Assembly (NCBI GenBank): GCA_963814545.1
Contig: CAWFDC010000011.1
Span: forward strand, 208,928-272,927
DNA length: 64,000 bases
Reading direction: 5' to 3'
From: an uncultured Thermoleophilia bacterium
GTDB taxonomy: Bacteria; Actinomycetota; Thermoleophilia; UBA2241
The position numbers were made by a program, and so were the translations under genes. The notes below the pieces were generated by a model. The model made no database searches. It was given only the letters and a program-made list of their open reading frames with translations, and was not told the origin of the DNA. Position 1 is the stretch's first letter, and every line of letters begins with the position of its first letter. This document shows positions 13,579-32,396 of this stretch, in pieces.

Positions 13579-14079
13579 TCAGGCCGAGGCCGCCTCCTTG
13601 TCCATCTTGTCGACCTTCAGGTCGACGGCGAGCACGTGCGGGTTCTGGCAGAAGGCGATGCACTGGGGCTCGCCGTCGCAGAGGTCGCACTTGAAGGCGA
13701 CCTGCCTGTCGGGGTGCTCGTGGATGACCCCGGTGGGGCAGACCTCGTAGCACTCGCCGCAGTTCGTGCACTTCGCCTCGTCGACCGTGAGCACGTAGCC
13801 CTTGACGACCTCGCCGTGCTTCGCCTTGCCCGGGTAGTCGCCCTTGACGGTGACCGTGATCTCCTTCGTCACGATGGCGTCCTCGGGGCAGGCCTCCTGG
13901 CACTTGGCGCAGGCGGTCTGCAGGCAGGTGTGACCGCGGATCTTGCCGGTCGTCGGGTTGACCTCGGAGAACAGGCGGGCGACCGAGGGCCGGTAGGCGC
14001 CCTCGTGCTGGGCCGAGCAGGCGAGCTCGCACATGTGGCAGCCGGTGCACTTCTTCGAGCTGATCATCACGTGAGGCAT
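13579..14079 (-). CDS. Poly-[4Fe-4S] ferredoxin-like protein, probable electron-transfer partner of the oxidoreductase
   Basis: Start MPHVMISSKK has RBS GAAGGGAAG. Four Cys clusters are present: CTGCHMCELAC, CAKCQEACP, CTNCGECYEVCP and CDLCDGEPQCIAFC. It lies immediately downstream of the oxidoreductase. Confidence 0.75.
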   Translation of the reverse strand: MPHVMISSKKCTGCHMCELACSAQHEGAYRPSVARLFSEVNPTTGKIRGHTCLQTACAKCQEACPEDAIVTKEITVTVKGDYPGKAKHGEVVKGYVLTVDEAKCTNCGECYEVCPTGVIHEHPDRQVAFKCDLCDGEPQCIAFCQNPHVLAVDLKVDKMDKEAASA

Positions 14080-14113
14080 GTGATCTTCCCTTCGTCTCTC
14101 GTGGACCGGCCGG

Positions 14114-15913
14114 CTAGAGGCGCACGTCGATGCCGAGCTCTGAGAGCTTGGCCTCTGAGGGGACGCCGTGCTCGTCCCAGCCGCGGAGGGTGTAGTACTC
14201 CTGGAGGACCCGGGCGAACTCGTCGCGATCGATGACCTGACCGGCGGCTGCGCCGTCCGAGAACGGCTGCACGTGCATGCGCTCCGGCACAGTGTCATCG
14301 GCCGACGTGAGCCCCTCACGCAGGTTGAACAGGCGCCCGAGGTTCCAGATGCGCTCACCGATCTGCATCAGCTCGTCGCGCGAGAACTCCCGGGCCCAGA
14401 GATGCCGCATGAGGATGCCGATCTGCTCGAGGTCGATGGCCCAGAAGTCGCACCAGATGCCGCTGAACTTGAGCGCGAAGAAGTTCTGGCCCCCAGCCTC
14501 GGCGTTGACGACCCAATCGGCCTTGCCCTCGAAAGTGGCGGCCGGCATCGAGCCCTCGACGATCTCCTGCCCGACGGGGAACGACCGCATGTGGCAGGCG
14601 CCTCGATCGGAGGTCGCGTAGCTGAGGGCCATGCCGAAGGCGCCGCGCGGGTCGTAGCCCGGCACCTCCATGTTCTTGACCTGCATGGCGAGCTCGGGGT
14701 GGCCGTACTTCGCGGCCAGGGCTTTGGCGCCCAGCGCGAGCTCGGCGCCGATGCCCTCGCGACCTGCCATCAGCTCCGCGGCTTCCAGGTACCCCCGGGT
14801 GTCACCAAAGGCGAGACCGAACTCGGCGTAGCCCTTCTCGCAGAGGTCCATGGCGAGACCCACGACCGAGCCCGAGGAGATGGTGTCCATGCCGAGCTCG
14901 TCACAGAGCTCGTTGAACTTCATCAGGGCGTCGATGTCGTCGATGCCGCAGTTCGCGCCGCAGAGGGCGATGGTCTCGTACTCGGGGCCCTCGCCGCGCA
15001 CCTCCTTGCCGGCCCACTTCGTGGCGTGGAAGTTGCGACAGGCGATCGCGCACTGGTAGCAGGCCCGCTTCTTGGCGCGGATCTTCTGGAACGACTCCGA
15101 GTTGATCTTGTCCGCGCCCTCGAAGACGCCGGCCGAGAAGTTGCGCGTCGGCAGAGCGCCGCCGCCGTTGATCACGTCGACCAGCACCGGCGTGCCCTCT
15201 TCGTGCGCCCACAGGTTGGTGTCGGTGAGGATGTAGTCCTCGTGCATCCTGTACATCAGGTCGAGGAACGCCTTGGCGTCGCCCACCGGCACCGAGCCCG
15301 TGCCGCGGATGGCCACGGCCTTCACGTTCTTCATGCCCATGAGCGCGCCGGCCCCGCCGCGGCCGGCCTTGTGGTATTGGTCGGTCGACAGGCAGGCCCA
15401 GGGGATCCTGCTCTCACCGGCGGGTCCGATCGACAGCACCTTGGCGTCGCGGTCCAGGTCGTTGCGCAACGCCTCCTCGACCGCGGACGTCATCATGCCG
15501 AGATAGCGCCCTGCCGGCCGGAACTCGACCCCGTCGTCGCAGATCCAGACCACCGTGGGCTCAAGCGCCTCGCCCGTCAGGATGATGATGTCGTAGCCGG
15601 CGAACTTCATCTCGGGGGCGAAGGATCCGCCCACGTAGGAGTCAAGGATCGTCCCGGTCGTCGGGCTCTTGCAGCCCACCACGAGGCGCGACGACGTGGT
15701 CACGTTGGTGCCGGCGAACGGCCCAGTGACGAGCAGCAGGGGGTTGTCGGGTGATGTGGGATCAAGCCCGGGAGCGACCTCGTCCCAGAGGTAGCGAAAG
15801 AGGAGTCCCTTCCCGCCCAGGTAGAGTCGTGCCCAGTCCATGTTCAGCGGCTCGACGGCGGCGCTCTGGGCACACAGGTCGATCCTGAGCACCTTGCCGG
15901 TGTAGAAGTCCAC
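14114..15913 (-). CDS. aor: Tungsten/molybdopterin aldehyde:ferredoxin oxidoreductase (AOR family)
   Basis: The approximately 600-aa ORF has the AOR N-terminal domain (FYTGKVLRIDL...YLGGKGLLFRYL) and the family-typical Cys-rich stretch KRACYQCAIACRNFHA. It ends SEAKLSELGIDVRL. A GTG start at ~15913 follows GGAAGGAG. Confidence 0.75.
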   Translation of the reverse strand: MDFYTGKVLRIDLCAQSAAVEPLNMDWARLYLGGKGLLFRYLWDEVAPGLDPTSPDNPLLLVTGPFAGTNVTTSSRLVVGCKSPTTGTILDSYVGGSFAPEMKFAGYDIIILTGEALEPTVVWICDDGVEFRPAGRYLGMMTSAVEEALRNDLDRDAKVLSIGPAGESRIPWACLSTDQYHKAGRGGAGALMGMKNVKAVAIRGTGSVPVGDAKAFLDLMYRMHEDYILTDTNLWAHEEGTPVLVDVINGGGALPTRNFSAGVFEGADKINSESFQKIRAKKRACYQCAIACRNFHATKWAGKEVRGEGPEYETIALCGANCGIDDIDALMKFNELCDELGMDTISSGSVVGLAMDLCEKGYAEFGLAFGDTRGYLEAAELMAGREGIGAELALGAKALAAKYGHPELAMQVKNMEVPGYDPRGAFGMALSYATSDRGACHMRSFPVGQEIVEGSMPAATFEGKADWVVNAEAGGQNFFALKFSGIWCDFWAIDLEQIGILMRHLWAREFSRDELMQIGERIWNLGRLFNLREGLTSADDTVPERMHVQPFSDGAAAGQVIDRDEFARVLQEYYTLRGWDEHGVPSEAKLSELGIDVRL

Positions 15914-15978
15914 GACTGACACGCTCCTTCCGATGGGTGGTCGTGACGCGACGCACTGAGCCGGCAGCGCCAGCGGTC

Positions 15979-17120
<1,142 letters not shown>

Positions 17121-17147
17121 TGTCGCCTCCTCGTGCACCGGCCGCAG

Positions 17148-18045
17148 CTCAGTCCAGCTGGTTGAGTTTGGTCAGGAAGTAGGCGATCACCGCGATCACC
17201 GCCATCGCCGCCGAGCATGAGCAGGCTCAGGGCGGATCCGGTACCCCAATCGCCGATGACGACCATGAGGTCGGCCACGGAGTTGCCGAGCATGTAGGAC
17301 GACGTACCGCCGACGAGGCCGGGGGTGGCGAAGTCCGTGAACAGCGGGATGTAGACGAGGATCACCGCCACGAAGATGCCGGGTGCCGCCAGCGGGAGCA
17401 GGATACGGCGCCAGCGCGTGAACCAGCTGGCGCCGAGATCGGTCGCCGCCTCGAAGAGGCTCGGGTTGATCGCCTTCATGGACGCGTAGATGGGCAGGGC
17501 GCAGTAGTTCACCCAGCTCGTCGACAGCACCAGGATCACCGAGAACTTGGTGAACAACAGCCAGTCGACCGGGACGTTGACGATGCCGGTCCACATCAGG
17601 AAGTCGTTGATCAACCCCTCCCGCCCCAGCAGCATGCGCCAGGCGTAGATGCGCACGATGGGGTTGAGCTCGTCGACGAGCACCAGCAGGAGCAGGAGCG
17701 GAAGCTCCCAACGGCCCGCCTTGAAGGCGATGAAGTACGCGAGAGGAAAGGCGATGACAAGCTGAACGGCCATCGCCGTGCTGGCCATGATCAGCGTGTC
17801 CCTGGCCACGCCGCGGTAGATCGGGTCGGTGAAGAGGTTGCGGAAGTTGTCGAGCGTCCAGCCGGTCTGGAACCCGTAGAGCGTCTCGTGCGGAAGCTCA
17901 TGATCAGCAGGATGACCAGCGGCGCGATGAAGAACAGCGCCAGGACCGCCAGCGGACTCGTCAGAAACGCCACCGGGCGCAGCGTCTTGACCGCCCGGGC
18001 GCGCAGGTGGCGGCCCTCGGAGACAGGCGGAGCCATGCTGGCCAT
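17148..18045 (-). pseudogene. potB: ABC transporter permease (PotB-like) with two single-nt frameshifts
   Basis: The N-terminus [51 protein letters not shown] switches frame (~17895, missing C in a CCC run) into [20 protein letters not shown]...[11 protein letters not shown]...[26 protein letters not shown]. The C-terminus [17 protein letters not shown] switches again (~17205) to the predicted end [19 protein letters not shown]. The ATG overlaps the potC stop (TGATG). Confidence 0.65.
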
Positions 18046-18962
18046 CAGCGGATCGTCTCCATGAGAGCGTCGGTCTTCTCCTTGGAGGTCCGGGCGCCGG
18101 CGCGCCAGGTGATCAGCACCCAAGCCCCGTAGACGAGCCCGACCTCGGCGATCGAGACGAGCGTGGAGATCGCGTTGACGACGGGCAGGTTCCTGGCGTG
18201 CCGCAGGGTGGAGTACACCCAGACCGGGAAGAGCCGGTCGAAGCCACCCACGAAGTAGGAGATCTCGAAGTTGTTGAACGACCACGAGAAGGCGAGGATG
18301 AAGGACGCGATGAGCGCCGGTGCGACATGGGGCAGCAGGACGTGGCGCAGGACCTGGAGTTGGGACGCCCCGAGGTCGATGGCCGACTCCTCCTGGGTGC
18401 GATCGAAGCGCGCCAGGCTCGCCGCGACGAGCACCGTGACCAGGGGGAACGTGACCACGATGTGCATGGGCACGACCGTGGCCCACGACAGCGCCAGTCC
18501 AACTTTGTTGAAGTAGATGAGCGCGCTGATGCCGATCACGAGCCAGGGCACGACGAGGGGCGCGGCCAGCACCATGGCGGCCGGGCCGCGCAGCCTGAAG
18601 CGCAGGCGCGTGATGGGGTAGGCGGCGAGGGTCCCCAGAAGGACGCTCACCGGCGCCACGACGCCCGCCACGAGCACCGAGTTGCGGATGGCCTCTCGGA
18701 GGTTCGCGTTGCCGAGGGCGTCCTTGTACCACTCCAGCGTGAAGCCGCTCCAGGGCAGCGAGAAGACGATGGAATCGTTGAACGAGAACACCGCCAGCAT
18801 GACGAGCGGGCCATAGAGCACGATGATGAACGCGACAGCGTAGATACGCCCACCGACGCCGTCCAGCCCGCGCGCTACACGGAGACCGAACGGCTTGCGG
18901 CCCTGAGGTGCGGAGCCGTCGCGCCGAGGCGGCGCGACGGCTCCCGGTGACACGGTCTCGGC
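18045..18962 (-). CDS. potC: ABC transporter permease (PotC-like), apparently intact
   Basis: A continuous approximately 300-aa ORF has six TM segments and the EAA-like motif [26 protein letters not shown]. The GTG start at ~18962 follows GAGGAG. Confidence 0.7.
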
Positions 18963-18964
18963 CA

Positions 18965-20087
18965 CTAGCTCCTCTTCACCTCTTGCCACACCTTGATCCA
19001 CTCGTCATACCCCTCTTCGGGAGGCGCGGCCGGCACGATGTTGGTCCAGTCCTTGACGATCCCGGCCTCTGCTTGCTTCTCAGGCGTCAGCAAGGGGATC
19101 GTGGTCGACAGTGTGGGGAGGTAATCCCACTCCGTCACCTCGAAGGCCTGGGCCTCGGGCGACAGGTAGTAGTCGATCAGGGCGTACGCGGCGTCGACGT
19201 TCTGGCAGGTGCTGCTGATGCCGTACCCGCAGGTCCAGACGATCTGCCCCTCTTCGCACGTCGTGAACTCCACAGGATCGCCCTCGTCCTGCGCGTTCTT
19301 CGCATTGCTGGGGTACCCGAGGCCGAGCGAGATCTCGCCGGTGTGGAAGAGCGCCACGATCTCCGAGTCGTTCGAGAAGAACGTGCGGAACTGGCCGCGC
19401 TGCTTCGCCTCGATGTACAGGTTCTTCACGTTCTCCAGCTGCTCGGAGCTCAGGTTGATCGGATCCTCATAGCCCAGGGCCAGCGCGCCCACCTGGATGG
19501 CCGTCATCGCGTAGTCGATCATCGCGACCTGGCCCTCGTACTTCGGGTCGAACAGGTCCATGAACGAGGTCGGCGTCTCCGTCACCTTCGTGGTGTCGTA
19601 GGCGATGCCGGTCACCCCGGCGTCGACGGGCGCCACGTAGTGCTGCCCGTCCCCCGACGTGACCCCCGGCAGGTCCGTCATCACGGGGAACATCTCGCCC
19701 CAGTGCGTCAGCCGGCTGATATCGAGCGGCACCACGAGACCGAGTCTCACGGCCCTCTCGGCGTTCTCTTCCACGCAGAGGTTGATGACGTCGGCCTCGA
19801 ACCCCGCACGCAGCTTGGCGACGGCGGCGTCGCCGTCTTCGTAGGCGCTGGCCTTGAGGTCGACATTCGGGTATTTCTCGTAGAACCCCGCGAGGTACTC
19901 CGGCACGAAGCCGTCCTCGTAGGCGAACACGGTGAGCTGGCCGGAGATGTCCTCGGGCTCCGGGGTGGCGCTGGTGCTCGGTGCCGGAGCGGCGGTCTCT
20001 TCGTCGCCGCAGGCACCGAGCAGCAGAGACGCCACCGACCAGGACGGTCACGAGCAACACAGTCCACAGGTGTGTCTTCGTGCTCAC
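18965..20087 (-). CDS. potD: Polyamine (spermidine/putrescine)-binding periplasmic lipoprotein PotD/PotF-like; 1-nt frameshift inside the signal peptide
   Basis: The mature part LLLGACGDEETAAP...QLTVFAYEDGFVPEYLAGF...KDWTNIV is a continuous 356-aa ORF. The signal peptide VSTKTHLWTVLLVTVLVGGVS (GTG ~20087 after AAGGAGG) is in another frame, with the junction near 20025. The lipobox is LLGAC. Confidence 0.65.
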
Positions 20088-20164
20088 ATCAAACCTCCTT
20101 GGAGGGGCGTCTTCGCCGCCCATGCGTGGCGCTGAACGAAGCAGGCCTGTGCATGCTACATAGT

Positions 20165-20184
20165 CAAGTGTCGACAGTCAACGG
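20165..20184. promoter_or_regulatory. Operator-like site C: CAAGTGTCGACAGTCAACGG
   Basis: It lies 80-100 bp upstream of the potD start, in the only sizeable intergenic gap of the pot operon region. Confidence 0.5.
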
Positions 20185-20221
20185 TATTGCGGCCCGGTCG
20201 CCGCGGTGCTAGCGTCGCTTC

Positions 20222-20912
20222 ATGATGAGTGGCGGTGACTTCACGGTCGAGCATGCCCTGGCGGTACTGATGAGTGCCCGCGGCGTGGACGCGTGGGGAG
20301 CGGCGGCGACCGCGCCAAGCTGGCCGGCGGCGCCGCCCCTGCCCACGGCGGTCTCGTTCGCCCTGGCGCTCCGCCCGGCCTCGCTCGAAGGCCTCGAGCG
20401 AGGCCCCAACGGACGCCGAGGTCGATGAATACCGCCGCGTCAACGACGAGCTGATCGAGATCGGCGAGGCGTGTGTGGCGCTCTTCCGTGCGCACGGCCA
20501 CGAGGGCGAGCGCGTCGACGACGACGCCCCGGACGGCCCGACGGACCCGGAGATCTTCGCCTCGAAGACGGCGGCGACGCAGGCGGGCCTCGGCTGGATC
20601 GGCAAGACCGCCCTTCTCGTGACCCCACGAGTTCGGCTCTGCCGTGCGTCTCGGCACCGTCTTCACGGACCTGCTGCTCCCCACGGGGACGCCGGTCACG
20701 GCCGGGCGCTGCGGCTCCTGCCGGGCCTGCGTCGACGCCTGCCCGGTCGATGCCGGACGGGACGTGACGTGGCAGCGCAGGTGTTCCACGGAGCACCCTC
20801 TACGACTGCGCTGCCTGCGATGCCTTCCAGCTCAGCTTTCCCGACCACGACGAGATCTGCGGCATCTGTATCTGGGTCTGCCCGTACACGAAGCGCGCCT
20901 TCCGTCGCTGAC
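20222..20912 (+). pseudogene. Epoxyqueuosine reductase QueG-like 4Fe-4S protein, fragmented by three or more frameshifts
   Basis: Pieces in three frames: TAATQAGLGWIGKTALLVTP (QueG hallmark GLGWIGK), RLGTVFTDLLLPTGTPVTAGRCGSCRACVDACPVDA, and TLYDCAACDAFQLSFPDHDEICGICIWVCPYTKRAFRR. Junctions are near 20400, 20640 and 20775. Confidence 0.5.
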
Positions 20913-20960
20913 GCCCGGGAGTCTGGGCGCGGCGGCGAGAGGCGGGGAAGGGGATCCGCG

Positions 20961-21716
20961 ATGAGGTTCCGCGACAAGGTGGCGCTGGTCACGGGCGGCA
21001 GCAGCGGGATAGGCCTCGCCACCGCGCGCCTGCTCGCGAGCGAAGGTGCGGCAGTGATGATCTGCGGCCGCGACCCCGACCGCCTGACGTCCGCCCTGCG
21101 GGCGCTCGAGGGGCTCGCCGGCAGCGTGGCAGAGGTGCGCTGCGACGTCAGTGACGAAGCCGCAGTGGACCGGCTCTTCGCCGAGATCGAGCGCCGATTC
21201 GGCAAGCTCGATATCTGCGTGTGCAACGCGGGCATCGAGACCGACGAGGGCTACGCTACCCTCGATCTGCCGAGCTCCGTGTTCGACGAGAACATGGCCG
21301 TCAACGTGCGCGGCGTCTTCCTGACGGCGCGCGGCGCGGCGCGCCTCATGACGGCGCGCGGTGCCGGCGCGATCGTCGCCATCGGCTCGTCGAGCGGCCT
21401 CGTCGTCGACCGCAAGGACCCCTCACCCGTCTACAACGCGACGAAGGCCGCCGTCCACATGTTCGCGCGCTCGCTGGCCGTCGAACTGGCACCGTTCGGC
21501 ATCCGCGTCAACGCGGTCGCACCTGGATGGATCGAGACCGGCATGACGGCCGAGGACGACGAGGACACGGTGGCGGCCGCACTGGCCGCGATCCCTCTGG
21601 GCCGCTACGGCAGAACGGACGAGGTCGCCGAGGCCGTCGCCTTCGCAGCCAGCGACGCGGCATCGTTCATGACCGGCGCGGTCCTCGTCATCGACGGCGG
21701 CGAGACGCTGAGCTGA
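20961..21716 (+). CDS. Short-chain dehydrogenase/reductase (SDR) family oxidoreductase
   Basis: ATG follows GGGAAGGGGA. Motifs: TGGSSGIG (cofactor), NAG, and YNATK (catalytic Y-x3-K). Confidence 0.8.
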   Translation: MRFRDKVALVTGGSSGIGLATARLLASEGAAVMICGRDPDRLTSALRALEGLAGSVAEVRCDVSDEAAVDRLFAEIERRFGKLDICVCNAGIETDEGYATLDLPSSVFDENMAVNVRGVFLTARGAARLMTARGAGAIVAIGSSSGLVVDRKDPSPVYNATKAAVHMFARSLAVELAPFGIRVNAVAPGWIETGMTAEDDEDTVAAALAAIPLGRYGRTDEVAEAVAFAASDAASFMTGAVLVIDGGETLS

Positions 21717-21774
21717 CTGCATCACCAGGTGCAGAGACGAGATCGTCTGGCCGCACGACGACCGATGAGTACCG

Positions 21775-22572
21775 TCACCCGTGGGTCGCGAGGTACGCCT
21801 CGGCGATCTCCAGCAGACGTGCACGGCCGAAGCTCGGGTCGTGACCGCCGTGCACGGTCGTCACCGGCAGCTCGCGCAGGCGGTGCATCGTCCGCACGTA
21901 GGCGCCGACGTCGCTGCCGGGCATCTGGTCGAGCAGCGGCCCGTCACGGTACACCGCGTCACCTGAGAAGAGGACGCCGGTCCTCTCCTCCCACAGCCCG
22001 ATGCTACCCGGCGAATGCCCCGGCAGGTGCAGCACGGTGAAGACGCGATCGCCGAGCGCGATCGCGTCGCCCTCGTCGACGGTGCGGGTCGCGATGGTCG
22101 CCCGGATCGCGAACGTCGCCGCATCGAAGCCGTCGTAGGGCACCGCCGTCACCAGGACCTCGGGCAGTTCCATGCCGTCGGCGGCGATCTCGCGCAGCAG
22201 GCTCTCAGGGAACTGCGCCGTGGTCAGACACGCCGCATCGGCGGCCGTCGCGAGCGTTTCCGCCTCGAGCCGGTGGACCAGGCGCTCAGGGAACTCGTGC
22301 ATGCCGCCCATGTGATCGGAGTGCGTGTGGGTGGCGACCGCGATCAGGGGCTTGCCCGGGCGCTCCTGCAGGGCTCGCGCCCTCGGCAGCAGCGGAGCGA
22401 TGCCGTTGCCGGTGTCGACGAGCAAGTCGCGGTCACGACCCTTGACCAGCCACAGGTTGGCGCGGAGGAACTCGTCGACCCAGGGTTCGGTCAGCAGCGT
22501 CACGCCGACGCCGACCGGCGCCGCGGAGAACCACTCGGCGGCGACGGGGAGTCTCGTCGCTCCGCCCCCCAT
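21775..22572 (-). CDS. MBL-fold metallo-hydrolase
   Basis: HTHSDHMGG matches the HxHxDH motif. Downstream residues HLPGHSPGS and HGGHD complete the family pattern. Start chosen at MGGGATRLPVAAEW. Confidence 0.65.
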   Translation of the reverse strand: MGGGATRLPVAAEWFSAAPVGVGVTLLTEPWVDEFLRANLWLVKGRDRDLLVDTGNGIAPLLPRARALQERPGKPLIAVATHTHSDHMGGMHEFPERLVHRLEAETLATAADAACLTTAQFPESLLREIAADGMELPEVLVTAVPYDGFDAATFAIRATIATRTVDEGDAIALGDRVFTVLHLPGHSPGSIGLWEERTGVLFSGDAVYRDGPLLDQMPGSDVGAYVRTMHRLRELPVTTVHGGHDPSFGRARLLEIAEAYLATHG

Positions 22573-22643
22573 CGTCGCTCGCCCGTTCACCGTCCCCTCA
22601 CCGCCTGTCGTCATCCGCCGCCTCGAGACGCCGCCGCCGACGT

Positions 22644-23444
22644 TCAGGGCTCCGGCACCGGTGGGTTGAGCGTCGGGTCGTACCACTCGCCGGTGAGCTC
22701 GCCACCGTCAACGATGATCGTCTCGCCGTTGATGTACGAGGCGTCGTCGGAGGCGAGGAAGAGGACCACAGCGGCCTGCTCGCGGGCCTGCGCCGGCCGG
22801 CGCATCGGCACGCGACTGCAGTACTCGACGAACTCCCGCCGGTACTCTTCAGGCGTGAGCTCGGCCGCGGCCTCTGGGGTGACCGTCTGCCCCGGCGCCA
22901 CGCAACACGCACGCAGGCCCACGTGTCCGAGCTCATGGGCGAAGCACCGCGTCATCATGACGAGGGCGGCCTTCGAGGTGTTGTAGTTGGTCGCCGGCGA
23001 CTCCACGCGAAACGCATTGGCGGAGGCGATGTTGATGATGACCCCGCCGCCCTGCTCCACCATGTGGCGCGCCGCCGCCTGGCTGGCGTAAAACGGCCCG
23101 TCCAGGTTGATCGCCATGGTGTCGCGCCATGTCCTCTCCTCCATCTCGAGGACGGGACCGTACGGCATGATCGCCGCGTTGTTGACCAGCACGTGTACGC
23201 GCCCCAGGGCGGCCACCGCGGCGGACACCATGTCACGAGCCTGCTCCGGAACGCCCATGTCGGCGACGGCAGTGTGGACGCGCTGTGGCGCACTGGATGC
23301 GGCGCGCATCTTCTCGAGCAGCGCACCGCGGCGCGCCACCGCGAACACGCCGGCGCCTTCGTCGACGAAGGCGTGAGCGATGGCCCAGCCGATGCCGCTC
23401 GAAGCCCCGGTGACGATCACGTTCTTGCCTGCGAAGCGTCCCAC
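22644..23444 (-). CDS. SDR family oxidoreductase
   Basis: TGASSGIG, NNAA and YNTSKAAL motifs are present. The 266-aa ORF is intact. Confidence 0.8.
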   Translation of the reverse strand: MGRFAGKNVIVTGASSGIGWAIAHAFVDEGAGVFAVARRGALLEKMRAASSAPQRVHTAVADMGVPEQARDMVSAAVAALGRVHVLVNNAAIMPYGPVLEMEERTWRDTMAINLDGPFYASQAAARHMVEQGGGVIINIASANAFRVESPATNYNTSKAALVMMTRCFAHELGHVGLRACCVAPGQTVTPEAAAELTPEEYRREFVEYCSRVPMRRPAQAREQAAVVLFLASDDASYINGETIIVDGGELTGEWYDPTLNPPVPEP

Positions 23445-23482
23445 GGCTCCTCCCTGGTCGGGTTCGTCCTCGGCGTGGCGCG

Positions 23483-24337
23483 CTAGCCGACTCTAGGGTA
23501 GAACAGCGGCGCGCCGCGAGCACCGACGTCCCCCACGAGAAGGTGCCACTCGCCGACGTTCGCTATCGCCAGGCGATCGAGCTCGGAGCCGACGAACGCG
23601 GCGTTCGTCGGCGTGTTGAGCTTGAGCCCTCGGGGATCGTCGGCGACGACGACGAGATCGCCGTCCGGGGCGAGACGGTAGACGCGGTCCGGGCGATAAC
23701 ACGCGATGTAGAGCGCGCCCTCGTCGTCGAAGGCGATGCCGTCGGGCACGTGGGCGTCCGGGAGCTCGACGACCAGCGCCGGCTCGCCGGCCGCGCCGTC
23801 CGCACCGACCGGCACGCGCCATACGCCCGGCAGGCTGGACTCGACGACGTAGAGCCAGCGCCCATCGGCGCTGAAGCAGCAGCCGTTCGGGTAACGCCGG
23901 AGGGCGGCCGTCCAGACGACCGTCTCCCCGCCGGGCGCGATGCGGTAGATCGCGCCGTTCTGCTCCTCCCAATCGGAGGAGTCCGTGACGTACAGGTTGC
24001 CGGCGGCGTCGAAGGCGCAGTAGTTCGGCTCGATCATGTCGCGCTCCACGCTCCCCGCAGAGTAGACCTCCACGTCGCCGGACCGCGGGTCCACGCGCAG
24101 CACCTCGGCACGTCCTTCATCGCAGGCGTAGACCGTGCCGGCTGCATCGACCGCGAGGCCGAGGATGCCGCCGCCGGTGTCGGCCACCTGGGCGACCTCG
24201 CCGTCGAGCGTGACGGCGTAGATCTGCCCCGCCTCGCCGCCGGCGTAGATGCGACCGGTCGCCGGGTCCCAGGCGAGGTCCTCGGGGTGATCCAGGTCCT
24301 CGGTCAGGATCTCGAACTCGCCGAGCATGTCGGTCAT
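23483..24337 (-). CDS. SMP-30/gluconolactonase/LRE-like beta-propeller protein
   Basis: It shows repeated blade motifs (GRIYAGG, GTVYACD, GNLYVTD, RWLYVVE, ALYIACY). The 284-aa ORF is intact. Confidence 0.6.
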   Translation of the reverse strand: MTDMLGEFEILTEDLDHPEDLAWDPATGRIYAGGEAGQIYAVTLDGEVAQVADTGGGILGLAVDAAGTVYACDEGRAEVLRVDPRSGDVEVYSAGSVERDMIEPNYCAFDAAGNLYVTDSSDWEEQNGAIYRIAPGGETVVWTAALRRYPNGCCFSADGRWLYVVESSLPGVWRVPVGADGAAGEPALVVELPDAHVPDGIAFDDEGALYIACYRPDRVYRLAPDGDLVVVADDPRGLKLNTPTNAAFVGSELDRLAIANVGEWHLLVGDVGARGAPLFYPRVG

Positions 24338-24367
24338 CGCCGCCCCTTCGTTTCGCTCGCCCGCTTC

Positions 24368-24826
24368 CTACTCCTCACCCCTGAGCTTCTTCATCGCCGC
24401 CTTGACGGCGTCGCTGTCGACCGCCAGCTCGACGAAGCCGATGCGCTCGTCGTAGATCGCCGGGTCGACCTGCTCGCGCAGGTCGTCCTCGAAGATGTGC
24501 ACCACGGGGAGTCCCAACTGGACCCCTGCCAATGGACCGACGTAACTCGGGTCGCCTTCGGTGACCGTCTCGGCGACCATCTCGAGTCCCTCGAGATCGG
24601 CCGCCCCGAGCACCACCACCAGGTCGTCAGTGCCGTACCGCTCCACCGTCGACTTGATGCGACCCTGGTTCTCTGGGTCCATCGCTCCCGCCGCCGTTCA
24701 GACGAAGCACTCCGTCTCGATCATGACGACGTCGGCGCCCGCCGTGCGGACACAGTCGGCGATCGCCTCTCCCGAGACGCTGTCGCGCTCGCCCAGGGCG
24801 ATCACCTTCTTGCCCTTGAGATCCAT
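24368..24826 (-). CDS. grdA: Glycine/sarcosine/betaine reductase complex selenoprotein A (GrdA); in-frame TGA at 24698..24700 read as selenocysteine
   Basis: From ATG ~24826 (RBS GGAGG): MDLKGKKVIALGERDSVSGEAIADCVRTAGADVVMIETECFV-TGA-TAAGAMDPENQGRIKSTVERYGTDDLVVVLGAAD...GPLAGVQLGLPVVHIFEDD...KLRGEE. This is colinear with GrdA (CFV-U-TAAGAMD). The ORF track shows only the post-UGA part (24368..24682). Confidence 0.75.
24661..24679 (-). other. Candidate bacterial SECIS hairpin for grdA: GACCC-AGAGAACCA-GGGUC on the mRNA
   Basis: A stem-loop begins about 19 nt 3' of the UGA codon, the position expected for a SelB-binding element. Confidence 0.4.
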
Positions 24827-25150
24827 CACTCACCTCCCTCCACCAGCCTGCCGACAGCGGCCTCCACCTCGGCCGCCGAAGGGTTCCCGCTCAGACGCTC
24901 GACTTCGACGCCGTCGCGGTAGAGCACGAACGTGGGCATGGCGATCGACCTTCAGGTCGCGAGCGATCTGACGGTTCTCGGCGGCGTTCACCTTGACCAG
25001 CGTGAACCTGCCCTCGCACTTCTTCTCGAGCTTCTCGACCGCCGGCATGAGCGCCAGGCACGGCACGCAGCGCGGCCCCCAGAAGTCGACCATCACGTTG
25101 CCCGACGCGACGAGCGCGGGGAACGAATCCACGGTTGCGTCGACTGCCAT
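24826..25150 (-). CDS. trxA: Thioredoxin (TrxA), with one frameshift near 24945
   Basis: The N-terminus MAVDATVDSFPALVASGNVMVDFWGPRCVPCLALMPAVEKL carries the WGxxCxxC active site and runs to ...IARDLKV. The C-terminus SIAMPTFVLYRDGVEVERLSGNPSAAEVEAAVGRLVEGGE is in the +1 frame. The stop overlaps the grdA ATG (TGATG). Confidence 0.7.
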
Positions 25151-26467
25151 TCACACCTCCACGATCACGGAGACCGCATCCCACATCTGGGTCATGCGGC
25201 CGAGGAACAGACTGCCCTTCGCCATCAGCATCGTCGACGTCAGCTCGCCACGCGCGAAGCGATCCAGGGCATGCGGGATCCAGGGCACCGCTGAGGCGAT
25301 ATGGCCCTGGGTCGGCGAGAAGCCGGGCAGGCCGCGACGACGACAGAAGTCGTTCATCTCGTCGCGGCCCAGCTCGCCGCGCGTCACGGCGAGGGCCGCC
25401 AGCAGCTTGTAGTTGCGCTCCGGCACGTCGTAGCCGCCGGCCGGCTCGGTGATCTCCGGGTTGTGGAGCTCCGTCGAGTACACGTCGATGTCGGCCACCT
25501 TGCGCCCGAGCTTGTCGAGCGGCACGCCGACGACCTCCTTGAGCAGCGACTGCTGCGAGGAGTCGCTGCCGATACGGTGCTGACCCACGGCGTCGAGCCG
25601 CAACCGGGGGCGTCGCCGCCGGCCGGCCCCACGCAGGACGGCCATGCCGGCGAGCACGTCCTCGAGCACGGGCACGCCCCGGTCGAGAGTGCCCTTGAAC
25701 TTCATGCCGAGCTTGGCCAGCGACCCGCCGGCGACCACCACGACGCGCTCGAAGGTGCCGGACTCGACGAGCGCGCCGGCCATGATGAGAGCGTGCACCG
25801 GGCTGGTGCAGAAGGCCTTCACGTCGCTGCCGTTGGCGTTCACGAGGCCGCAGCACTCGGCGATCGCCTTGGCGAGCGCGCCGCCGCCGCGGTTGTAGCG
25901 GTCTCCCACCGCCTCTTCGCCGGCGCCGATCGCGTACCGGATCGACTCGGGGTCGACACCCGAGTGGGCCAGCATGGCGCGCAGCGCGTGCACCCCGCCC
26001 GCCTTGCAGGAGAGGTTCTCGAGCAGGGCGTGGGCGCTGAGCGCCGCGTCCTCGTCGTGGGCGCGCACGAACGCGCCCACGACCTCGCCACCGTCGAAGA
26101 GCGTCAGATCGCCTCTGTCGGGGCGTGCCTCCTCGCCCAGGCGCACGAGGTCGAAGAGGTCGACCTCGTCCATCAACTCGTAGAAGGAGCGCTGGTCGGC
26201 GATGTCGCCGTACGGTCCGGCCGCCGGGGCGGAACCGTCGATCCCCTCCCACCAGGGCCGCTCGCGGCTCCACAGCTCCTCGGGCCTGAGGTTGCCGATG
26301 AACGCCTGGTTCGGGGCGTAGCCGCAGGCCTGCTCGAACGTTCGCAGCTTGTCCTGCACGGTCGCGAACTTCTCGGCCTCGCGCGCCGGCTTGGAGCCGA
26401 AGCGCACCAGGTCCGGCACGTGGTCCAACACGAACGACGCGGCTAGGATCCCGGCACGCCGCGTCAC
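25151..26467 (-). CDS. Putative glycine reductase complex protein C subunit (GrdC/GrdD-like, thiolase/KAS-like fold)
   Basis: A continuous 438-aa ORF sits between grdB and trxA. The thiolase-like segment DVKAFCTSPVHALIMAGALVESGTFERVVVVAGGS suggests protein C. Its stop abuts the trxA ATG. Assignment is by operon context and motif only. Confidence 0.45.
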   Translation of the reverse strand: MTRRAGILAASFVLDHVPDLVRFGSKPAREAEKFATVQDKLRTFEQACGYAPNQAFIGNLRPEELWSRERPWWEGIDGSAPAAGPYGDIADQRSFYELMDEVDLFDLVRLGEEARPDRGDLTLFDGGEVVGAFVRAHDEDAALSAHALLENLSCKAGGVHALRAMLAHSGVDPESIRYAIGAGEEAVGDRYNRGGGALAKAIAECCGLVNANGSDVKAFCTSPVHALIMAGALVESGTFERVVVVAGGSLAKLGMKFKGTLDRGVPVLEDVLAGMAVLRGAGRRRRPRLRLDAVGQHRIGSDSSQQSLLKEVVGVPLDKLGRKVADIDVYSTELHNPEITEPAGGYDVPERNYKLLAALAVTRGELGRDEMNDFCRRRGLPGFSPTQGHIASAVPWIPHALDRFARGELTSTMLMAKGSLFLGRMTQMWDAVSVIVEV

Positions 26468-26507
26468 GGTCCCACTCGCAGGTCCTCGCTCGCGCGGCCT
26501 CCGTCAC

Positions 26508-27788
26508 TCACTCTCGTTCCTCCCATACGGTCCGCGGCTGTACGTCCGTCTCGAGCATGGAGACGGCGCGCTCCACGATGCGGCGCCGCAGCACGCGCTC
26601 GTCGGCGGCGCCGAGACCGGGCTCGCCCACCGGGTTCGTGACGGCGACCCCGCGCAGCGTTCGGTTCGTCCCGACCATGGTCGCGATCGTCGGGAGCGCC
26701 GTGATGAACACCGTCGGTATCCCCGCACGCTCGATCTCCTTGCTCAGCGTTGCCCCGCAACGCGTGCCCGTCCCTCAGGTGCCCGTGAGGATCACCGCCT
26801 GGATGCCCGCGTCGCGCAGGCGCAGCGCGATCTCCTGTCCGAACTTCGCCGCCGTGGCCACCGGGGTCGAGTTGCCGGTCGTGGTGTAGAGCGTCTCGTG
26901 CAGCGCACCGATCCGTCCCTCGCCCAGCAGGCTGCGGACGGCGTCGAGCGGCACGAGACGGTCGGGGTCGGCGTTGGCGATGCTCGTGTCGTAGCCGCCG
27001 TGCACCGTCTCCCAGCTCTCCGGCTCGAGGCCGGCCAGGCCGTCGAGAGGGTAGGCGAACCACGCGTGCGCGCGGTTCGATTCGAGGCGGTCCGGGTTGC
27101 CCTTCGGCACCAGACCGGACTCGGTGACCAAGGCCACGGTCGCCGCGGCGACGTCCGCGAGCGGCGGCGGCGGCGGGACGTCGTCGAACGCCGCCGTCAC
27201 CTCGGTACGGACGTCCCCGGAGAGCTTGGCGAGCAGCAGTTCGACCGCGCGCTGTGCGCCGGTGAGCTCGGCGCGCTCGTTGCGCCGCAGGCCGCGGGGG
27301 AGATAGCCCTCCTCGTCGGGCGGCCCCAGAGTCTCTCCGGCCGCCAGCCGGCGCGCCAGGACCGCCATCCGCGGCAGCGCGTCGCGCATGCCCTTCACCG
27401 TGATGTCGGTCGGCACGATGTAGGCGGCGCCCTCGGCGGCGAGCACTCCGGGGCTCTCCGGATGCATGCCGCAGACCGCGGGTACGCCGCCGCGCGCCGC
27501 CTCGCGCGCGAGCGCGCCGCAGGCGTAGCCGTAACGGCCCGAACCGAACGACGGCCCGCAGACGAGCACGTCGGGCTGCTCCTCGCCGAGCCAGCGCAGG
27601 AGCTGCGCGAGCGCGTCTTCTTCGTGCTCCCCGAAATAGTCATCGCCGCACACGAGGGTGACGGCGACGTCGAGACCGAGACCCTTCCCGGGCCCAACGG
27701 CGCCCTCCCGGCGCACCGGCTCCGTGTCCGCAGCCTCCTCGCCGCCGAGACCGGCGAAGAACTGGTTCACGTAGTGCACGACCTTCAC
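26508..27788 (-). CDS. grdB: Glycine reductase selenoprotein B (GrdB); in-frame TGA at 26775..26777 read as selenocysteine
   Basis: A GTG start overlaps the grdE stop (GTGA). MKVVHYVNQFFAGLGGEEAAD is the canonical GrdB N-terminus. The frame continues across TGA: ...AVILTGT-U-GTGTRCGATLSKEIERAGIPTVFITALPTIATMVGTNR...WEERE. The pieces appear as two ORFs in the track (26775..27926 and 26508..26711). Confidence 0.75.
26747..26763 (-). other. Candidate bacterial SECIS hairpin for grdB: GCGUUGC-GGG-GCAACGC
   Basis: A perfect 7-bp stem with a G-rich apical loop starts 11 nt 3' of the UGA, matching bacterial SECIS spacing. Confidence 0.5.
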
Positions 27789-29065
27789 CACGACACCGCC
27801 CGCAGGTGCATGTCCCCCATCTGGCAGAGCGCCCCCAGGTAGGTGACCGTCGGCACCGGGCCGGCTTCGTCGGCCGGGCGGCCAGCCCAGGTGCGGCGCC
27901 CGCCGACCACACGCTGCGGGCGCCACTCCGGCACCAGTTCCTCCTCGTTGCCGACGCTTACGATGCAGTCCGCCTCGGGCACGTGGTCGGTGAGACCGCC
28001 GTTCGTCTCGGCGAAGAGCACGACGGTACGGATGCCGAGGCGTTCGCAGGCACGGCAGGTGAGCACGGTGTCAGTGTGCGAGTTGCCCGTCTGGAAGGTC
28101 GTCAGAACGGCCGCCTCGGCTCCGACCTGACGGGCGAGCTTGGCGGCCATCAGCGCCGAGCGCTCCTTGTCGAAGGCGGAGGGAAGGTAGCCGAGCGTGA
28201 GGATCACGCCGCAGAAGCACAGGTCGACTCCGTGTCGGCGCAGCAGTTCGCGCAGCAGGCTGCTGCGCTGGAAGAAGTAGGTGGGATCGCGCACTCCGGC
28301 CCAGTCGTACTGCCCCGCGGTGAGCGCGCCGTCGAGCACCTCGCGCGCGTCGAGGAGCGTCGGCACCAGGCCGTTGAGAGGCCGACCGTAGAGGTACGTG
28401 TCGACGAGCGGGCCCTCTGAGGCCACCTGCAGGATGACGCACACTCGCGGCAGGTCGCCGGAGACGGGCGGTAGGTCGAGAAGATCGACGCGGTCGGGCG
28501 GCGCGTCCAGCGTGCTCGCCGCCAGGTCGCGAGCGACGCGCAGGGTCACCCGTCGGAGCGCGGCGTCCGCTTCGGCCGGCGGCGCCGCGGGGTCGCACTC
28601 ATAACTCAACACGACGTTCTGGGTGGCCGACCAGCGGGTGAGCTCGGCAGCGGGACCTGCCATGTCGACGAACGAGTCGCCATCGGGATAGACGTCGAGA
28701 CTCGTCACATCGTAGGTGCCGTGGAAGTCGGCAGTCGCCAGAACGGCGACCCCCTCGAGGCGGTGGGTCCCCCCGGCGCCCGCCACCGTCAGTGCGCCGA
28801 GCGCACCGGGGAAGGTCGTCGCGGGCTCGTCCGTCTTGACCGTCGGCTCGACGGCGTCGAGGACGTTGAGCACACGCACGGACTCGCCCGGCCGCACGAG
28901 CGTGACGCTCATCCCGAGCAGGCCTGGCTCACCGGCCGCCGCCTCCTCGAGGCCGGCCGTATCTACGGTCAGGACGCCGTCGCGCCACGAGGTCTCGGCG
29001 CCCGCCACCACGTCGTTCACCGCGAACGCGGCGAGCTCCAACGGCGGTGCGGACGTGGTGGGCAT
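27785..29065 (-). CDS. grdE: Glycine reductase protein B proprotein (GrdE-like, alpha/beta subunit precursor)
   Basis: This 426-aa ORF is translationally coupled to grdB. It has the upstream position typical of grdE in grd operons, and RBS GGAGG before the ATG at ~29065. Called mainly by context. Confidence 0.5.
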   Translation of the reverse strand: MPTTSAPPLELAAFAVNDVVAGAETSWRDGVLTVDTAGLEEAAAGEPGLLGMSVTLVRPGESVRVLNVLDAVEPTVKTDEPATTFPGALGALTVAGAGGTHRLEGVAVLATADFHGTYDVTSLDVYPDGDSFVDMAGPAAELTRWSATQNVVLSYECDPAAPPAEADAALRRVTLRVARDLAASTLDAPPDRVDLLDLPPVSGDLPRVCVILQVASEGPLVDTYLYGRPLNGLVPTLLDAREVLDGALTAGQYDWAGVRDPTYFFQRSSLLRELLRRHGVDLCFCGVILTLGYLPSAFDKERSALMAAKLARQVGAEAAVLTTFQTGNSHTDTVLTCRACERLGIRTVVLFAETNGGLTDHVPEADCIVSVGNEEELVPEWRPQRVVGGRRTWAGRPADEAGPVPTVTYLGALCQMGDMHLRAVSW

Positions 29066-29086
29066 ACGGTCGCCTCCAGATGCAGA

Positions 29087-29110
29087 GCGTCGACTGTCGA
29101 CAGTCTACGG
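29087..29110. promoter_or_regulatory. Operator-like site D: perfect 14-bp palindrome GACTGTCGACAGTC (29092..29105) flanked by GTCGAC/GTCTAC
   Basis: It lies 27-40 bp upstream of the grdE ATG, in the 62-bp gap between ltaE and grdE. Confidence 0.55.
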
Positions 29111-29127
29111 GCGGCCTGCCGCCGCGG

Positions 29128-30174
29128 TCAAGCTGACGCCAGACGCGCCATCGTCGCCGTCATGATCGCCGCAGCCTCCTCGATGTCGGCGTCGTCGACG
29201 TCGAGGTGCGTGACGAACCGCAGGCCGTAGGGATTGGGGTCCACCAGCAGGCCCGCCGGCGCCGCGGCCTCAGCGACTTGATCGGCGGTCAGACCCGCCG
29301 GCCGTGGGTCGGCGAGCACCATGTTCGTGTGGACGCGCGCGACGTCGACGGCGAGCCCCGGCACGGCGGCCAGTCGCTCGGCAAGACAACGCGCACGGCG
29401 ATGGTCGTCCGCGAGACGCGCGATGTTGTGCTCGAGAGCATGGAGACCGCCGGCCGCCACGATGCCTACCTGGCGCATCGCGCCGCCGAACTGCAGCCGA
29501 TAACGCACTGCGCGCCTCACGAGACGCTCGCTCCCGAGCAGGAGCGAGCCGACTGGAGCCCCTAGCCCTTTCGAGAGGCAGGCGTTCAACGAGTCGAACG
29601 GCGCCGCCAGCTCGCGCAGGGACGACCCGGTCGCGACGTGGGCGTTGAAGATGCGCGCGCCGTCGAGATGGAGCGCCAGCCCGTGGCGGTCGCAGAACGC
29701 CCGCATCTCCAGGACCTTCTCCTGCGGGTACACGACACCACCGGCGGCATTGTGGGTGTTCTCGAGGCTGACGACGCGCGTCACCGAGTCGTCGGCCTCC
29801 TCGTCGGTGCGCACGTAGAGCTCGAGTTCGCCGGAGTCGAGTGTGCCGTCCGGCGAGTCGAATTGCCGCAGCTGCAGCCCCGACAGCGCCGCCGCGGCTC
29901 CCATCTCCCACTGCACGATGTGCGACCGGGCGTGGATGAACACCTCGTCGCCGGCATCGGCCTGCACGCGCAGCGCGACCTGGTTGCTCATCGTCCCGGT
30001 CGGGAAGAAGAGCGCGGCCTCCTTGCCGAACAGCTCCGCGGCGCGCTCCTGGAGGGCGTTGACGCTCGGGTCCTCACCAGACTCATCGTCGCCCACCGGA
30101 GCTGCCGCCATCACCCGGCGCATCTCCTCGTCGGGACACGTCTTCGTGTCGCTGCGCAAGTCGATGGTCTTCAT
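29128..30174 (-). CDS. ltaE: Low-specificity L-threonine aldolase (PLP-dependent)
   Basis: Start MKTIDLRSDTKTCPDEEMRRVMAAAPVGDDESGEDPSVNALQERAAELFGKEAALFFPTGTMSNQVAL (RBS GGAGG) matches the threonine aldolase N-terminus. The later segment HLDGARIFNA also fits. Confidence 0.75.
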   Translation of the reverse strand: MKTIDLRSDTKTCPDEEMRRVMAAAPVGDDESGEDPSVNALQERAAELFGKEAALFFPTGTMSNQVALRVQADAGDEVFIHARSHIVQWEMGAAAALSGLQLRQFDSPDGTLDSGELELYVRTDEEADDSVTRVVSLENTHNAAGGVVYPQEKVLEMRAFCDRHGLALHLDGARIFNAHVATGSSLRELAAPFDSLNACLSKGLGAPVGSLLLGSERLVRRAVRYRLQFGGAMRQVGIVAAGGLHALEHNIARLADDHRRARCLAERLAAVPGLAVDVARVHTNMVLADPRPAGLTADQVAEAAAPAGLLVDPNPYGLRFVTHLDVDDADIEEAAAIMTATMARLASA

Positions 30175-30242
30175 GTCAGTGCCTGCAGCGTTTGACCTCC
30201 TGCCAGCGGATCGGGCGCGCCGCCCCACCATCCACGCAATAC

Positions 30243-30264
30243 TACTGTTGACTGTCGACACTCG
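30243..30264. promoter_or_regulatory. Operator-like site E: TACTGTTGACTGTCGACACTCG
   Basis: It lies 70-90 bp upstream of the ltaE ATG. Confidence 0.5.
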
Positions 30265-32307: not shown

Positions 32308-32321
32308 GACTGTCAACAGTC
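32308..32321. promoter_or_regulatory. Operator-like site F: GACTGTCAACAGTC (near-perfect palindrome) in the gntR/aminotransferase divergent promoter
   Basis: It lies about 100 bp upstream of the gntR ATG and about 76 bp upstream of the aminotransferase ATG. A partial half-site TTGTCAGC lies at 32283. Confidence 0.55.
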
Positions 32322-32396
32322 GACGTGGAACTCGCCGACCCCGCATTCGGGCACTCACGGTGTGCGCGATACCTGGCTCGACGCAAGGAGGCAGCC

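Follow-up and report, generated by a model that had tools for sequence, protein, structure and literature searches.

A putative selenoprotein reductase cluster of the glycine reductase family, with its own active-site signature and a shared operator, in an uncultured Thermoleophilia bacterium

Most characterised selenoenzymes of the glycine reductase family are from strict anaerobes of the Firmicutes and Synergistota, and five substrates are known for the family: glycine, sarcosine, betaine, D-proline and fluoroacetate. Acetyl-phosphate is formed by the subunit GrdD. To our knowledge, the presence of a carbonyl in the four characterised reductase classes coincides without exception with a substrate nitrogen capable of imine formation, and we know of no described reductase for a tertiary or quaternary N-substituted glycine such as dimethylglycine. 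Autocatalytic formation of the pyruvoyl group needs cysteines that the betaine and fluoroacetate subunits GrdI and FarE do not have, and these two are not proproteins (PMC10838667). Coupling of threonine aldolase to glycine reductase is established for Clostridium sticklandii (PMC3091704).

Here we describe a stretch of 64,000 nt (G+C ~70%) from a contig of an uncultured Thermoleophilia bacterium, referred to throughout as the window, which carries on its minus strand (29065-24368) a five-gene cluster of the glycine reductase family in the order E'-B'(Sec)-C'-Trx-A(Sec), where Sec is selenocysteine and Trx thioredoxin. An earlier note on this DNA had proposed a module converting threonine to glycine plus acetaldehyde, made up of a threonine aldolase, the adjacent reductase genes and an aldehyde:ferredoxin oxidoreductase (AOR) with an iron-sulphur (Fe-S) partner. 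Comparison with Pfam, NCBIfam and Protein Data Bank (PDB) entries placed the named genes at or very near the positions it gave, the Fe-S partner being corrected to 13579-14079. We read the region as a GntR/FCD-repressed catabolic regulon built around an uncharacterised substrate class of the glycine/sarcosine/betaine-reductase family, acting on something other than glycine, and would give this reading about an even chance of being right.

The reductase cluster and its active-site signature

Genes in the window were selected by third-position GC together with profile searches (Pfam, NCBIfam). Reference GrdE, GrdB and GrdD sequences came from Acetoanaerobium noterae (locus L035), which has the canonical grdX-trxB-trxA-grdE-grdA-grdB-grdC-grdD operon, grdG and grdF from a Peptoclostridium acidaminophilum record, and the betaine-type grdI and grdH from Enterococcus gilvus (locus L039). 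As controls, A. noterae GrdB scored 738.8 bits on TIGR01917 (cut-off 602.2) and its GrdD 581 bits on NF040747 (cut-off 350).

The components that are shared between reductases of the family are readily recognised in the window. GrdC' and GrdA score above the cut-offs of their models (Table 1), GrdA carries the CxxU motif (ECFVUTAAG), and B' reaches 433.7 bits on TIGR01918, the model for the selenoprotein B superfamily of glycine/betaine/sarcosine/D-proline reductases, against a cut-off of 65.45. The reading frames of grdE' and grdB' overlap, grdB' beginning at 27791 and grdE' ending at 27785, and a SECIS-type hairpin (GUUGC-GGG-GCAAC) follows the grdB' UGA by 16-31 nt, a position as in canonical grdB. 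Sec decoding in grdB' and grdA looks genuine, because the Sec codons sit in canonical motifs and the UGA of grdB' is followed by this grdB-like hairpin. No tRNA-Sec was found in the window, and no Rfam family was matched, hence neither a glycine nor a molybdenum cofactor (Moco) riboswitch.

The cluster departs from its relatives in the substrate-specific subunit E' and in B'. In the pyruvoyl region GrdE and GrdG read DGAI-SGN-C-V(S/A)(A/P)-C-DK and E' of the window reads DGALTAGQ-Y-DWA-G-VR; both processing cysteines are absent, Tyr and Gly standing in their places, and a Tyr-Asp-Trp run, Tyr253 to Trp255, sits where GrdE carries the pyruvoyl-forming Cys. GrdI reads SGS-F-MPCSSK at the same region, with Phe in place of that Cys. 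When 117 E' homologs were aligned, the pyruvoyl position was occupied by Tyr in 111, by Phe in 6 and by Cys in none. Judged by these residues, E' is predicted to be unable to form the pyruvoyl group of the characterised glycine and sarcosine enzymes. The top NCBIfam match of E' is GrdG, at 185 bits against a cut-off of 780, and on the FarE model it scores 130 bits (cut-off 675); comparison with solved structures returned none for E', only chance matches at E ~0.8.

The Sec motif of B' (LTGT-U-GTG-TRC, in the window and in the related loci L002, L004 and L005) likewise differs from the LTST-U-GTC-TRC of GrdB, GrdF and GrdH: it is UxxGxxC, the first Cys of UxxCxxC being replaced by Gly. B' is 46% identical to GrdB, 44% to GrdF and 37% to GrdH, and thus as distant from GrdB as GrdH is. 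It falls below every substrate-specific cut-off, with 408.8 against 602.2 bits for glycine (TIGR01917), 433.5 against 800 for sarcosine (GrdF) and 363 against 775 for betaine (GrdH).

When the window and 33 related loci were searched by tblastn at E<=1e-3, with the A. noterae protein as query for GrdD, neither GrdD, GrdX nor TrxB gave a significant match; for TrxB there were only matches to the FAD motif, and thioredoxin itself is in the operon. The missing processing cysteines of E', the motif and scores of B', and the lack of GrdD, GrdX and TrxB argue together against a glycine reductase of the established kind and disfavour glycine as the substrate. The earlier note had taken the grd operon for a glycine reductase yielding acetyl-phosphate, and that part of its proposal is not borne out.

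A shared operator, and the aldolase and oxidoreductase behind it

The palindrome GTYRAC-N-GTYRAC occurs at 7 exact sites in the 64 kb, against 0.08 expected, and the upstream regions of ltaE' and grdE' both carry TGTCGACAGTC(A/G)AC, which bears out the earlier observation that these two genes have an operator in common. Each of the three sigma-70-like promoters in 13300-32500 overlaps or abuts an operator: the double operator of grdE' overlaps the -10 box of a promoter-like site at 29131-29102, the -35 box of the promoter-like site of the AOR operon (20181-20153) lies within an operator, and the third is listed in Table 1. Operators were found at equivalent positions in 28 of 35 orthologous loci. 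On this pattern the genes are predicted to form a GntR/FCD repressor regulon, AOR included, in which at least six transcription units share the operator. The common operator couples aldolase, reductase and AOR, and is stronger evidence of coupling than the earlier note had.

The presumed binder of the operator is the GntR/FCD protein, whose top NCBIfam match is phnR_burk, at 150 bits below the cut-off of 271.5. Phosphonate catabolism was considered as the main reading after this PhnR-like match, together with weak PhnS2/PbfA matches and an alkaline-phosphatase fragment nearby, and was rejected as such: the scores are far under their cut-offs, the phosphatase is not kept in the related locus L033, and it is hard to see phosphite as a leaving group.

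AOR is no direct neighbour of the grd genes, some 8.3 kb and seven genes separating it from grdA. It stands 65 nt downstream of the ATPase gene of an ATP-binding cassette (ABC) importer, and neither a promoter-like nor a terminator-like site lies between the two. Against PDB entries it scores 494 bits with 9mqx_D, 411 with 1aor (P. furiosus) and 397 with 8c0z, compared with 312 for FOR, 189 for WOR5 and 159 for BamB, and its CYQCAIAC aligns with the [4Fe-4S] cluster motif. By these scores it belongs to the aldehyde-oxidising AOR clade and not to another tungsto-enzyme family, an outcome the earlier note had left room for. The best solved relatives of the Fe-S protein that follows it are Fe-S subunits co-crystallised with AOR-family enzymes. 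The cofactor of AOR is probably tungsten; a search for tungstate-uptake and molybdopterin-biosynthesis genes, which the earlier note had named among its checks, turned up none among the ~60 window open reading frames (ORFs) scanned.

LtaE', a pyridoxal-phosphate (PLP) enzyme, matches Pfam Beta_elim_lyase (E=1e-93) and carries the PLP-lysine motif SKGLGAPVGS. It scores 372 bits on the NCBIfam model for GntG-family aldolases (cut-off 230), 290.5 on the LtaE equivalog NF007825, slightly under its cut-off of 312, and aligns over its full length with L-allo-threonine aldolase 3wgb (297 bits) and E. coli LtaE 4lnj (269 bits). These matches identify it as a true threonine-aldolase-family enzyme and not a serine hydroxymethyltransferase paralog, the alternative raised earlier; its substrate, as far as homology goes, could be any beta-hydroxy-alpha-amino acid. 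Divergent from the regulator gene is a class-III PLP enzyme (Pfam Aminotran_3 E=1e-72; 87% identity to its ortholog in locus L003), closest among solved structures to the alanine/serine racemase 9wqz and to gamma-aminobutyrate (GABA) aminotransferases. After it, at 33900-34830, stand genes for a rhodanese-domain protein and a MauE/DoxX membrane protein, a pair also kept beside the cluster in relatives L001-L004 and on the P0031 contig.

Relatives of E' form at least 120 clusters at 53% identity or more. All 25 full-length E' matches in species-representative genomes are in metagenome-assembled genomes (MAGs) of uncultured Thermoleophilia, Actinomycetes or Actinomycetota, and wherever the source is known members of the clade come from uncultured soil Actinomycetota. 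Neighbourhoods were compared over +/-10 kb around grdE' in 29 loci and, as a second set, in loci centred on AOR homologs. The core E'-B'-C'-Trx-A, with an SMP-30/gluconolactonase-like (SGL) protein and a short-chain dehydrogenase (SDR), is kept from 90% down to ~52% E' identity, including loci in which these companions have been relocated to the upstream side of grdE'. A metallo-beta-lactamase-fold (MBL) hydrolase is beside the core in most closer relatives and is often missing in distant ones, and the GntR regulator, PotD-like transporter and class-III PLP enzyme also persist in the family, less uniformly. Taken together, the data point to a distinct clade of the reductase family, so far confined to uncultured Actinomycetota, with its own active-site signature and its own companions.

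The aldolase is found over a narrower range. It stands directly upstream of grdE' at 74% E' identity or more and in one 61% relative; in a 64% relative it is at another position with an operator of its own, and it is not within 10 kb in a 63% relative or in the relatives at 57% and below, the distant half of the family. These distant loci keep the PotD-like importer, the class-III PLP enzyme, the GntR regulator and the SGL/SDR pair, with MBL less consistently. The sub-clade of the window adds the aldolase and AOR to the GntR regulon.

AOR appeared in none of the 29 loci of the +/-10 kb set, a count that was rejected as uninformative since AOR lies 11.7 kb beyond grdE'. Around each of the three nearest AOR homologs on long contigs (95%, 78% and 77% AOR identity) the reductase, SGL, optional SDR and MBL genes, the pair of a QueG-like protein and an SDR, the importer, AOR and the Fe-S gene occur together; the 78% locus also carries the aldolase, and the E' identities of AOR-linked relatives go down to 61%. 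That AOR is merely a generic neighbour was considered and rejected: homologs at 68-70% identity sit in unrelated contexts, so the linkage to the reductase is specific to orthologs of at least 77%.

Two such paralog loci deserve description. In a related Thermoleophilia MAG (L036, 12319-15857) a 70%-identical AOR and its Fe-S subunit are followed by a ThiS/MoaD-like gene and then by radical-SAM, ATP-grasp/PylC-like and PylD-like genes, which together resemble a gene set for pyrrolysine biosynthesis; a B12-binding protein is encoded close by. In L037 (1926-4085, 8393-9874, 17332-20274) a 68%-identical AOR lies among several MttB-family (quaternary/trimethylamine methyltransferase) genes, partly called as adjacent fragments, maybe through stop-codon read-through, and the locus also has three class-III aminotransferases and a second AOR. 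The L037 arrangement hints that aldehyde oxidation and quaternary-amine metabolism may be linked in this lineage.

Further genes of the window and frame breaks

The remaining genes of the putative regulon say little about the substrate, the NCBIfam matches of SGL, the SDRs, MBL, the CrtI-like flavoprotein, the M20 deacylase and the decarboxylase being generic. The co-regulated importers are of polyamine type and not of betaine or amino-acid type. The QueG-like protein resembles only the Fe-S half of epoxyqueuosine reductases and reductive dehalogenases (TIGR00276, 69 bits); an intact copy of 244 aa is present in L032 (4959-5693), and the gene invariably has an SDR as its partner and points away from the importer/AOR operon. 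We regard it as a candidate electron-transfer link. The CehA/McbA-like tandem paralogs, each ~77% identical to the other's orthologs, stand behind an operator and hence in the same regulon.

Table 1. Features of the window, with positions as numbered from its first letter
Feature	Position	Strand	Remarks
CehA/McbA-like pair	12008-10422 and 10206-8416	-	~530 aa each; weak metallohydrolase domain matches
Operator	12221..12233		upstream of the two paralogous 530-aa CehA/McbA-like metallohydrolase genes
AorA-type Fe-S subunit	13579..14079	-	166 aa, four Cys clusters; true gene rather than a 259-aa ORF
AOR catalytic subunit	14114..15913	-	599 aa; AFOR_N E=6e-70, AFOR_C E=3e-118
PotABCD-like ABC importer	15979..20035	-	operon ending in AOR
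Importer genes	binding protein 18965-20035; permeases 18045-18965 and ~17150-18045; TOBE-domain ATPase 15979-~17120	-	
Operator GTCGACAGTCAAC	20170..20182		divergent promoter region of importer/AOR operon and QueG-like/SDR pair
QueG/reductive-dehalogenase-like Fe-S protein (20225-20974) and second SDR (20961-21716)	20225..21716	+	
MBL-fold hydrolase	21775..22614	-	frequent companion; weak GloB/SoxH-like similarity
Short-chain dehydrogenase SDR1	22644..23444	-	conserved companion
SGL beta-propeller protein	23483..24337	-	conserved companion of the reductase
grdA (selenoprotein A)	24368..24826	-	Sec TGA 24698-24700; NF040748 201 bits (cut-off 130)
Thioredoxin (CVPC)	24826..25150	-	frame broken near 24949 in the window
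grdC' (component C beta subunit)	25151..26467	-	NF040746 513.9 bits (cut-off 450)
grdB'	26508..27791	-	selenoprotein B homolog; Sec TGA 26775-26777
grdE'	27785..29065	-	substrate-specific subunit, predicted unprocessed type; Pfam Gly_reductase E=1e-84
Double overlapping operator GTCGACTGTCGACAGTCTAC	29089..29108 (exact site 29089-29101)		upstream of grdE'
ltaE'	29128..30174	-	threonine-aldolase-family PLP enzyme, GntG subfamily, 348 aa
Operator GTTGACTGTCGAC	30247..30259		73 bp upstream of the ltaE' start codon
PotD/YdcS-like solute-binding protein	30400..31518	-	
GntR/FCD transcription regulator	31538..32206	-	Pfam GntR and FCD; presumed operator binder
Operator GTCAACAGTCGAC	32312..32324		between divergent GntR and class-III PLP genes; directly after sigma-70-like promoter 32283-32311 (+)
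Class-III PLP enzyme (omega-aminotransferase or racemase fold)	32403..33833	+	~476 aa; start inferred from homologs
M20 deacylase	~35950-34772	-	decarboxylase unit
Cupin	~36200-35971	-	decarboxylase unit
CrtI-family flavoprotein	37991-36336	-	decarboxylase unit
DAP/Orn-type decarboxylase	39287-37988	-	frameshifted
Operators	39338-39350 and 39447-39459		upstream of the minus-strand decarboxylase/flavoprotein/cupin/M20 unit
Frame breaks	24949 (thioredoxin); 20225-20974 (QueG-like); ~17866-18049 (permease); ~16568-16848 (ATPase); ~38496-38500 (decarboxylase)		

Relative to intact orthologs, five genes of the window copy have broken frames (thioredoxin, QueG-like protein, second permease, ABC ATPase and DAP/Orn-type decarboxylase), and such a number could mean that the regulon is here a decaying remnant. 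The breaks are scattered single-base indels in otherwise conserved genes, that of the thioredoxin being one inserted G near 24949 which three relatives do not have, and in the sequence around them protein identity is 75-98%, with neither stop codons nor deletions. The genes are intact in the closest relatives, themselves MAGs, which we take as the pattern expected from assembly error. Real decay therefore seems very improbable to us, and the indels more likely arose during assembly of this metagenome-derived genome.

Beyond the outermost operators are a truncated LarA (lactate racemase N-domain) ORF at 39482-40099 and an enolase gene at 40262-42130, whose stop-to-stop frame runs ~190 codons upstream of the enolase domain. 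Farther on, the tandem rubrerythrins of the earlier note, oxidative-stress genes of anaerobe type, were recovered as paralogs of 53% mutual identity (44953-45495 and 45498-46070), with an AhpC/TSA peroxiredoxin and an ABM-domain protein beside them (44137-44661). A creatinase/prolidase-type M24 peptidase gene occupies 54639-56087, and the 95-nt tRNA-Ala that ARAGORN reports inside it (55040-55134) is probably spurious.

Candidate substrates and comparison with known systems

Under the regulon reading that we favour, an imported cationic amine or amino acid would be split or transaminated by the PLP enzymes to give an aldehyde and an alpha-substituted carboxylate. AOR would oxidise the aldehyde to the acid, its four-cluster Fe-S subunit receiving low-potential electrons, and the selenocysteine of B' would displace the leaving group on the alpha-carbon with no Schiff base. 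E', having no pyruvoyl precursor, would offer its conserved Tyr-Asp-Trp site, comparable to the Phe of GrdI, and such a triad in place of the pyruvoyl site would suit an ammonium group. The carboxymethyl-type group would then pass to the Sec of GrdA, which thioredoxin would re-reduce while GrdC' takes over the acyl group; since GrdD was not found in the window or the 33 loci, the release of acetyl-phosphate is left with no assigned catalyst. Rather than free glycine, the substrate is probably an N-substituted glycine with a tertiary or quaternary nitrogen, or a different alpha-carboxylate whose leaving group is already cationic; dimethylglycine or other N-substituted glycines may be named as candidates by way of speculation. 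More tentatively, and with clearly less confidence than the regulon itself, one may imagine a GrdD-independent Stickland-like loop, in which electrons from a tungsten AOR, carried by Fe-S proteins and the operon thioredoxin and with no NADPH-dependent TrxB, would drive a new class of selenocysteine reductase, one able to break the bond between C-alpha and N in an N-substituted glycine whose nitrogen is tertiary or quaternary.

Several points weigh against this picture. The data do not favour a tertiary or quaternary amine over other leaving groups, the importers are of polyamine and not betaine type, and the route by which electrons would reach thioredoxin from the Fe-S subunit of AOR has no assignment. 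Genes for GrdD, TrxB and the Sec machinery may lie outside the window, in other parts of the genome, and the frameshifted copy might be decaying, assembly error being more likely. Above all, a glycine-producing aldolase stands directly upstream of grdE' in every close relative, for which glycine as substrate is the simplest reading. LtaE' would then split threonine or allo-threonine into glycine and acetaldehyde, glycine would be reduced to an acetyl unit, and AOR would turn acetaldehyde into acetate, the two electrons so gained feeding the reductase in an internally balanced Stickland reaction. This adjacency is its best argument, joined by the shared operator, by the full-length homology of LtaE', by the joint presence of aldolase, reductase and AOR in each locus that allowed all three to be judged, by the canonical GrdA and GrdC', from which carboxymethyl chemistry is expected, by the slightly closer relation of B' to GrdB than to GrdH, and by the C. 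sticklandii precedent. Set against these are the pyruvoyl-forming Cys that none of the 117 E' homologs has, the Cys lost from the Sec motif of B' and its glycine-specific score of ~409 against 602 bits, the want of a GrdD for acetyl-phosphate formation in the window and the 33 loci, the distant half of the family with no aldolase within 10 kb, the polyamine-like rather than amino-acid-like importers, and the lack of a glycine riboswitch match. On balance we consider the conversion of threonine through glycine improbable. Of the module proposed in the earlier note, the coupling of aldolase, reductase and AOR by operator and synteny stands, and the glycine reductase assignment is not supported.

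It is also conceivable that AOR acts upstream of the reductase. From an imported amine with a 2-aminoethyl or 2-hydroxyethyl arm, either an SDR or the class-III PLP enzyme would produce the aldehyde, AOR would make from this an N-substituted glycine, and cleavage by the reductase would trim off a C2 unit. In favour of such an order, no other set of genes is conserved as widely as the PotD-like importers, the class-III PLP enzyme, the SDRs and the reductase, and it accords with the predicted co-transcription of AOR and importer, with the AOR paralogs found elsewhere beside class-III aminotransferases and quaternary-amine methyltransferase genes, and with an unprocessed E', which fits a substituted nitrogen. 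It draws on gene context, no such substrate is known, and the aldolase is left with no role, for which reasons we think it unlikely.

If the threonine and glycine route were true after all, the locus would present a known pathway in a new host. If the regulon we favour is active, the reductase family would gain a substrate class, a major soil lineage would be credited with selenium- and probably tungsten-dependent reductive C-N cleavage, and a defined operator/repressor pair would be at hand for finding the inducer. Automatic annotations of glycine reductase in such genomes are unsafe for metabolic reconstruction.

Compared with the glycine reductase of A. noterae (L035), the cluster shares the CxxU selenoprotein A, GrdC, an operon thioredoxin, translationally coupled E and B genes, and the Sec position and SECIS hairpin of selenoprotein B. 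It differs in that E' is only 31-32% identical, with Tyr and Gly for the two processing cysteines, and in the GTUGTGTRC of its 46%-identical B' in place of STUGTCTRC. Unlike the systems of Peptostreptococcales, it is found with no GrdD, GrdX or TrxB, follows the order E-B-C-Trx-A, is accompanied by SGL, SDR and in many cases MBL genes, shares its regulon with an AOR, and belongs to a high-GC actinomycete host.

AOR aligns over its full length with bacterial tungsten AORs of two or three subunits (AorABC of Aromatoleum aromaticum, 8c0z; 9mqx) at 397-494 bits, shares their CxxCxxxC motif, and has behind it a four-cluster Fe-S subunit with homology to AorA; in contrast to AorABC, no FAD/NAD subunit (AorC) comes after it, and it lies behind an ABC importer in a GntR regulon with a selenoprotein reductase. 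LtaE' has full-length homology to the threonine aldolases of E. coli (4lnj) and Aeromonas jandaei (3wgb), at 269-297 bits with the PLP-lysine motif, and differs in falling slightly under the LtaE equivalog cut-off, the broader GntG-family model fitting best.

The betaine reductase GrdI/GrdH (E. gilvus, with biochemistry from P. acidaminophilum) is similar in having an unprocessed E-type subunit with an aromatic residue at the pyruvoyl-Cys position and in its use of the shared GrdA, GrdC and Trx. GrdH, however, keeps STUGTCTRC, B' and E' are only 37% and 32% identical to GrdH and GrdI respectively, and betaine clusters carry a BCCT transporter, GrdD and TrxB, where here there are polyamine-type importers. 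No paper was found in the literature that links glycine reductase with Thermoleophilia or describes the E' family. The fluoroacetate reductase FarE/FarB of Cloacibacillus porcorum (PMC10838667) resembles the present pair in that FarE has no processing cysteines and FarB an altered CxxC; the Far operon differs in relying on a separate GrdA, GrdC and GrdD, and it belongs to another lineage and gene context. It provides a precedent for recruitment of the family to a non-amine substrate.

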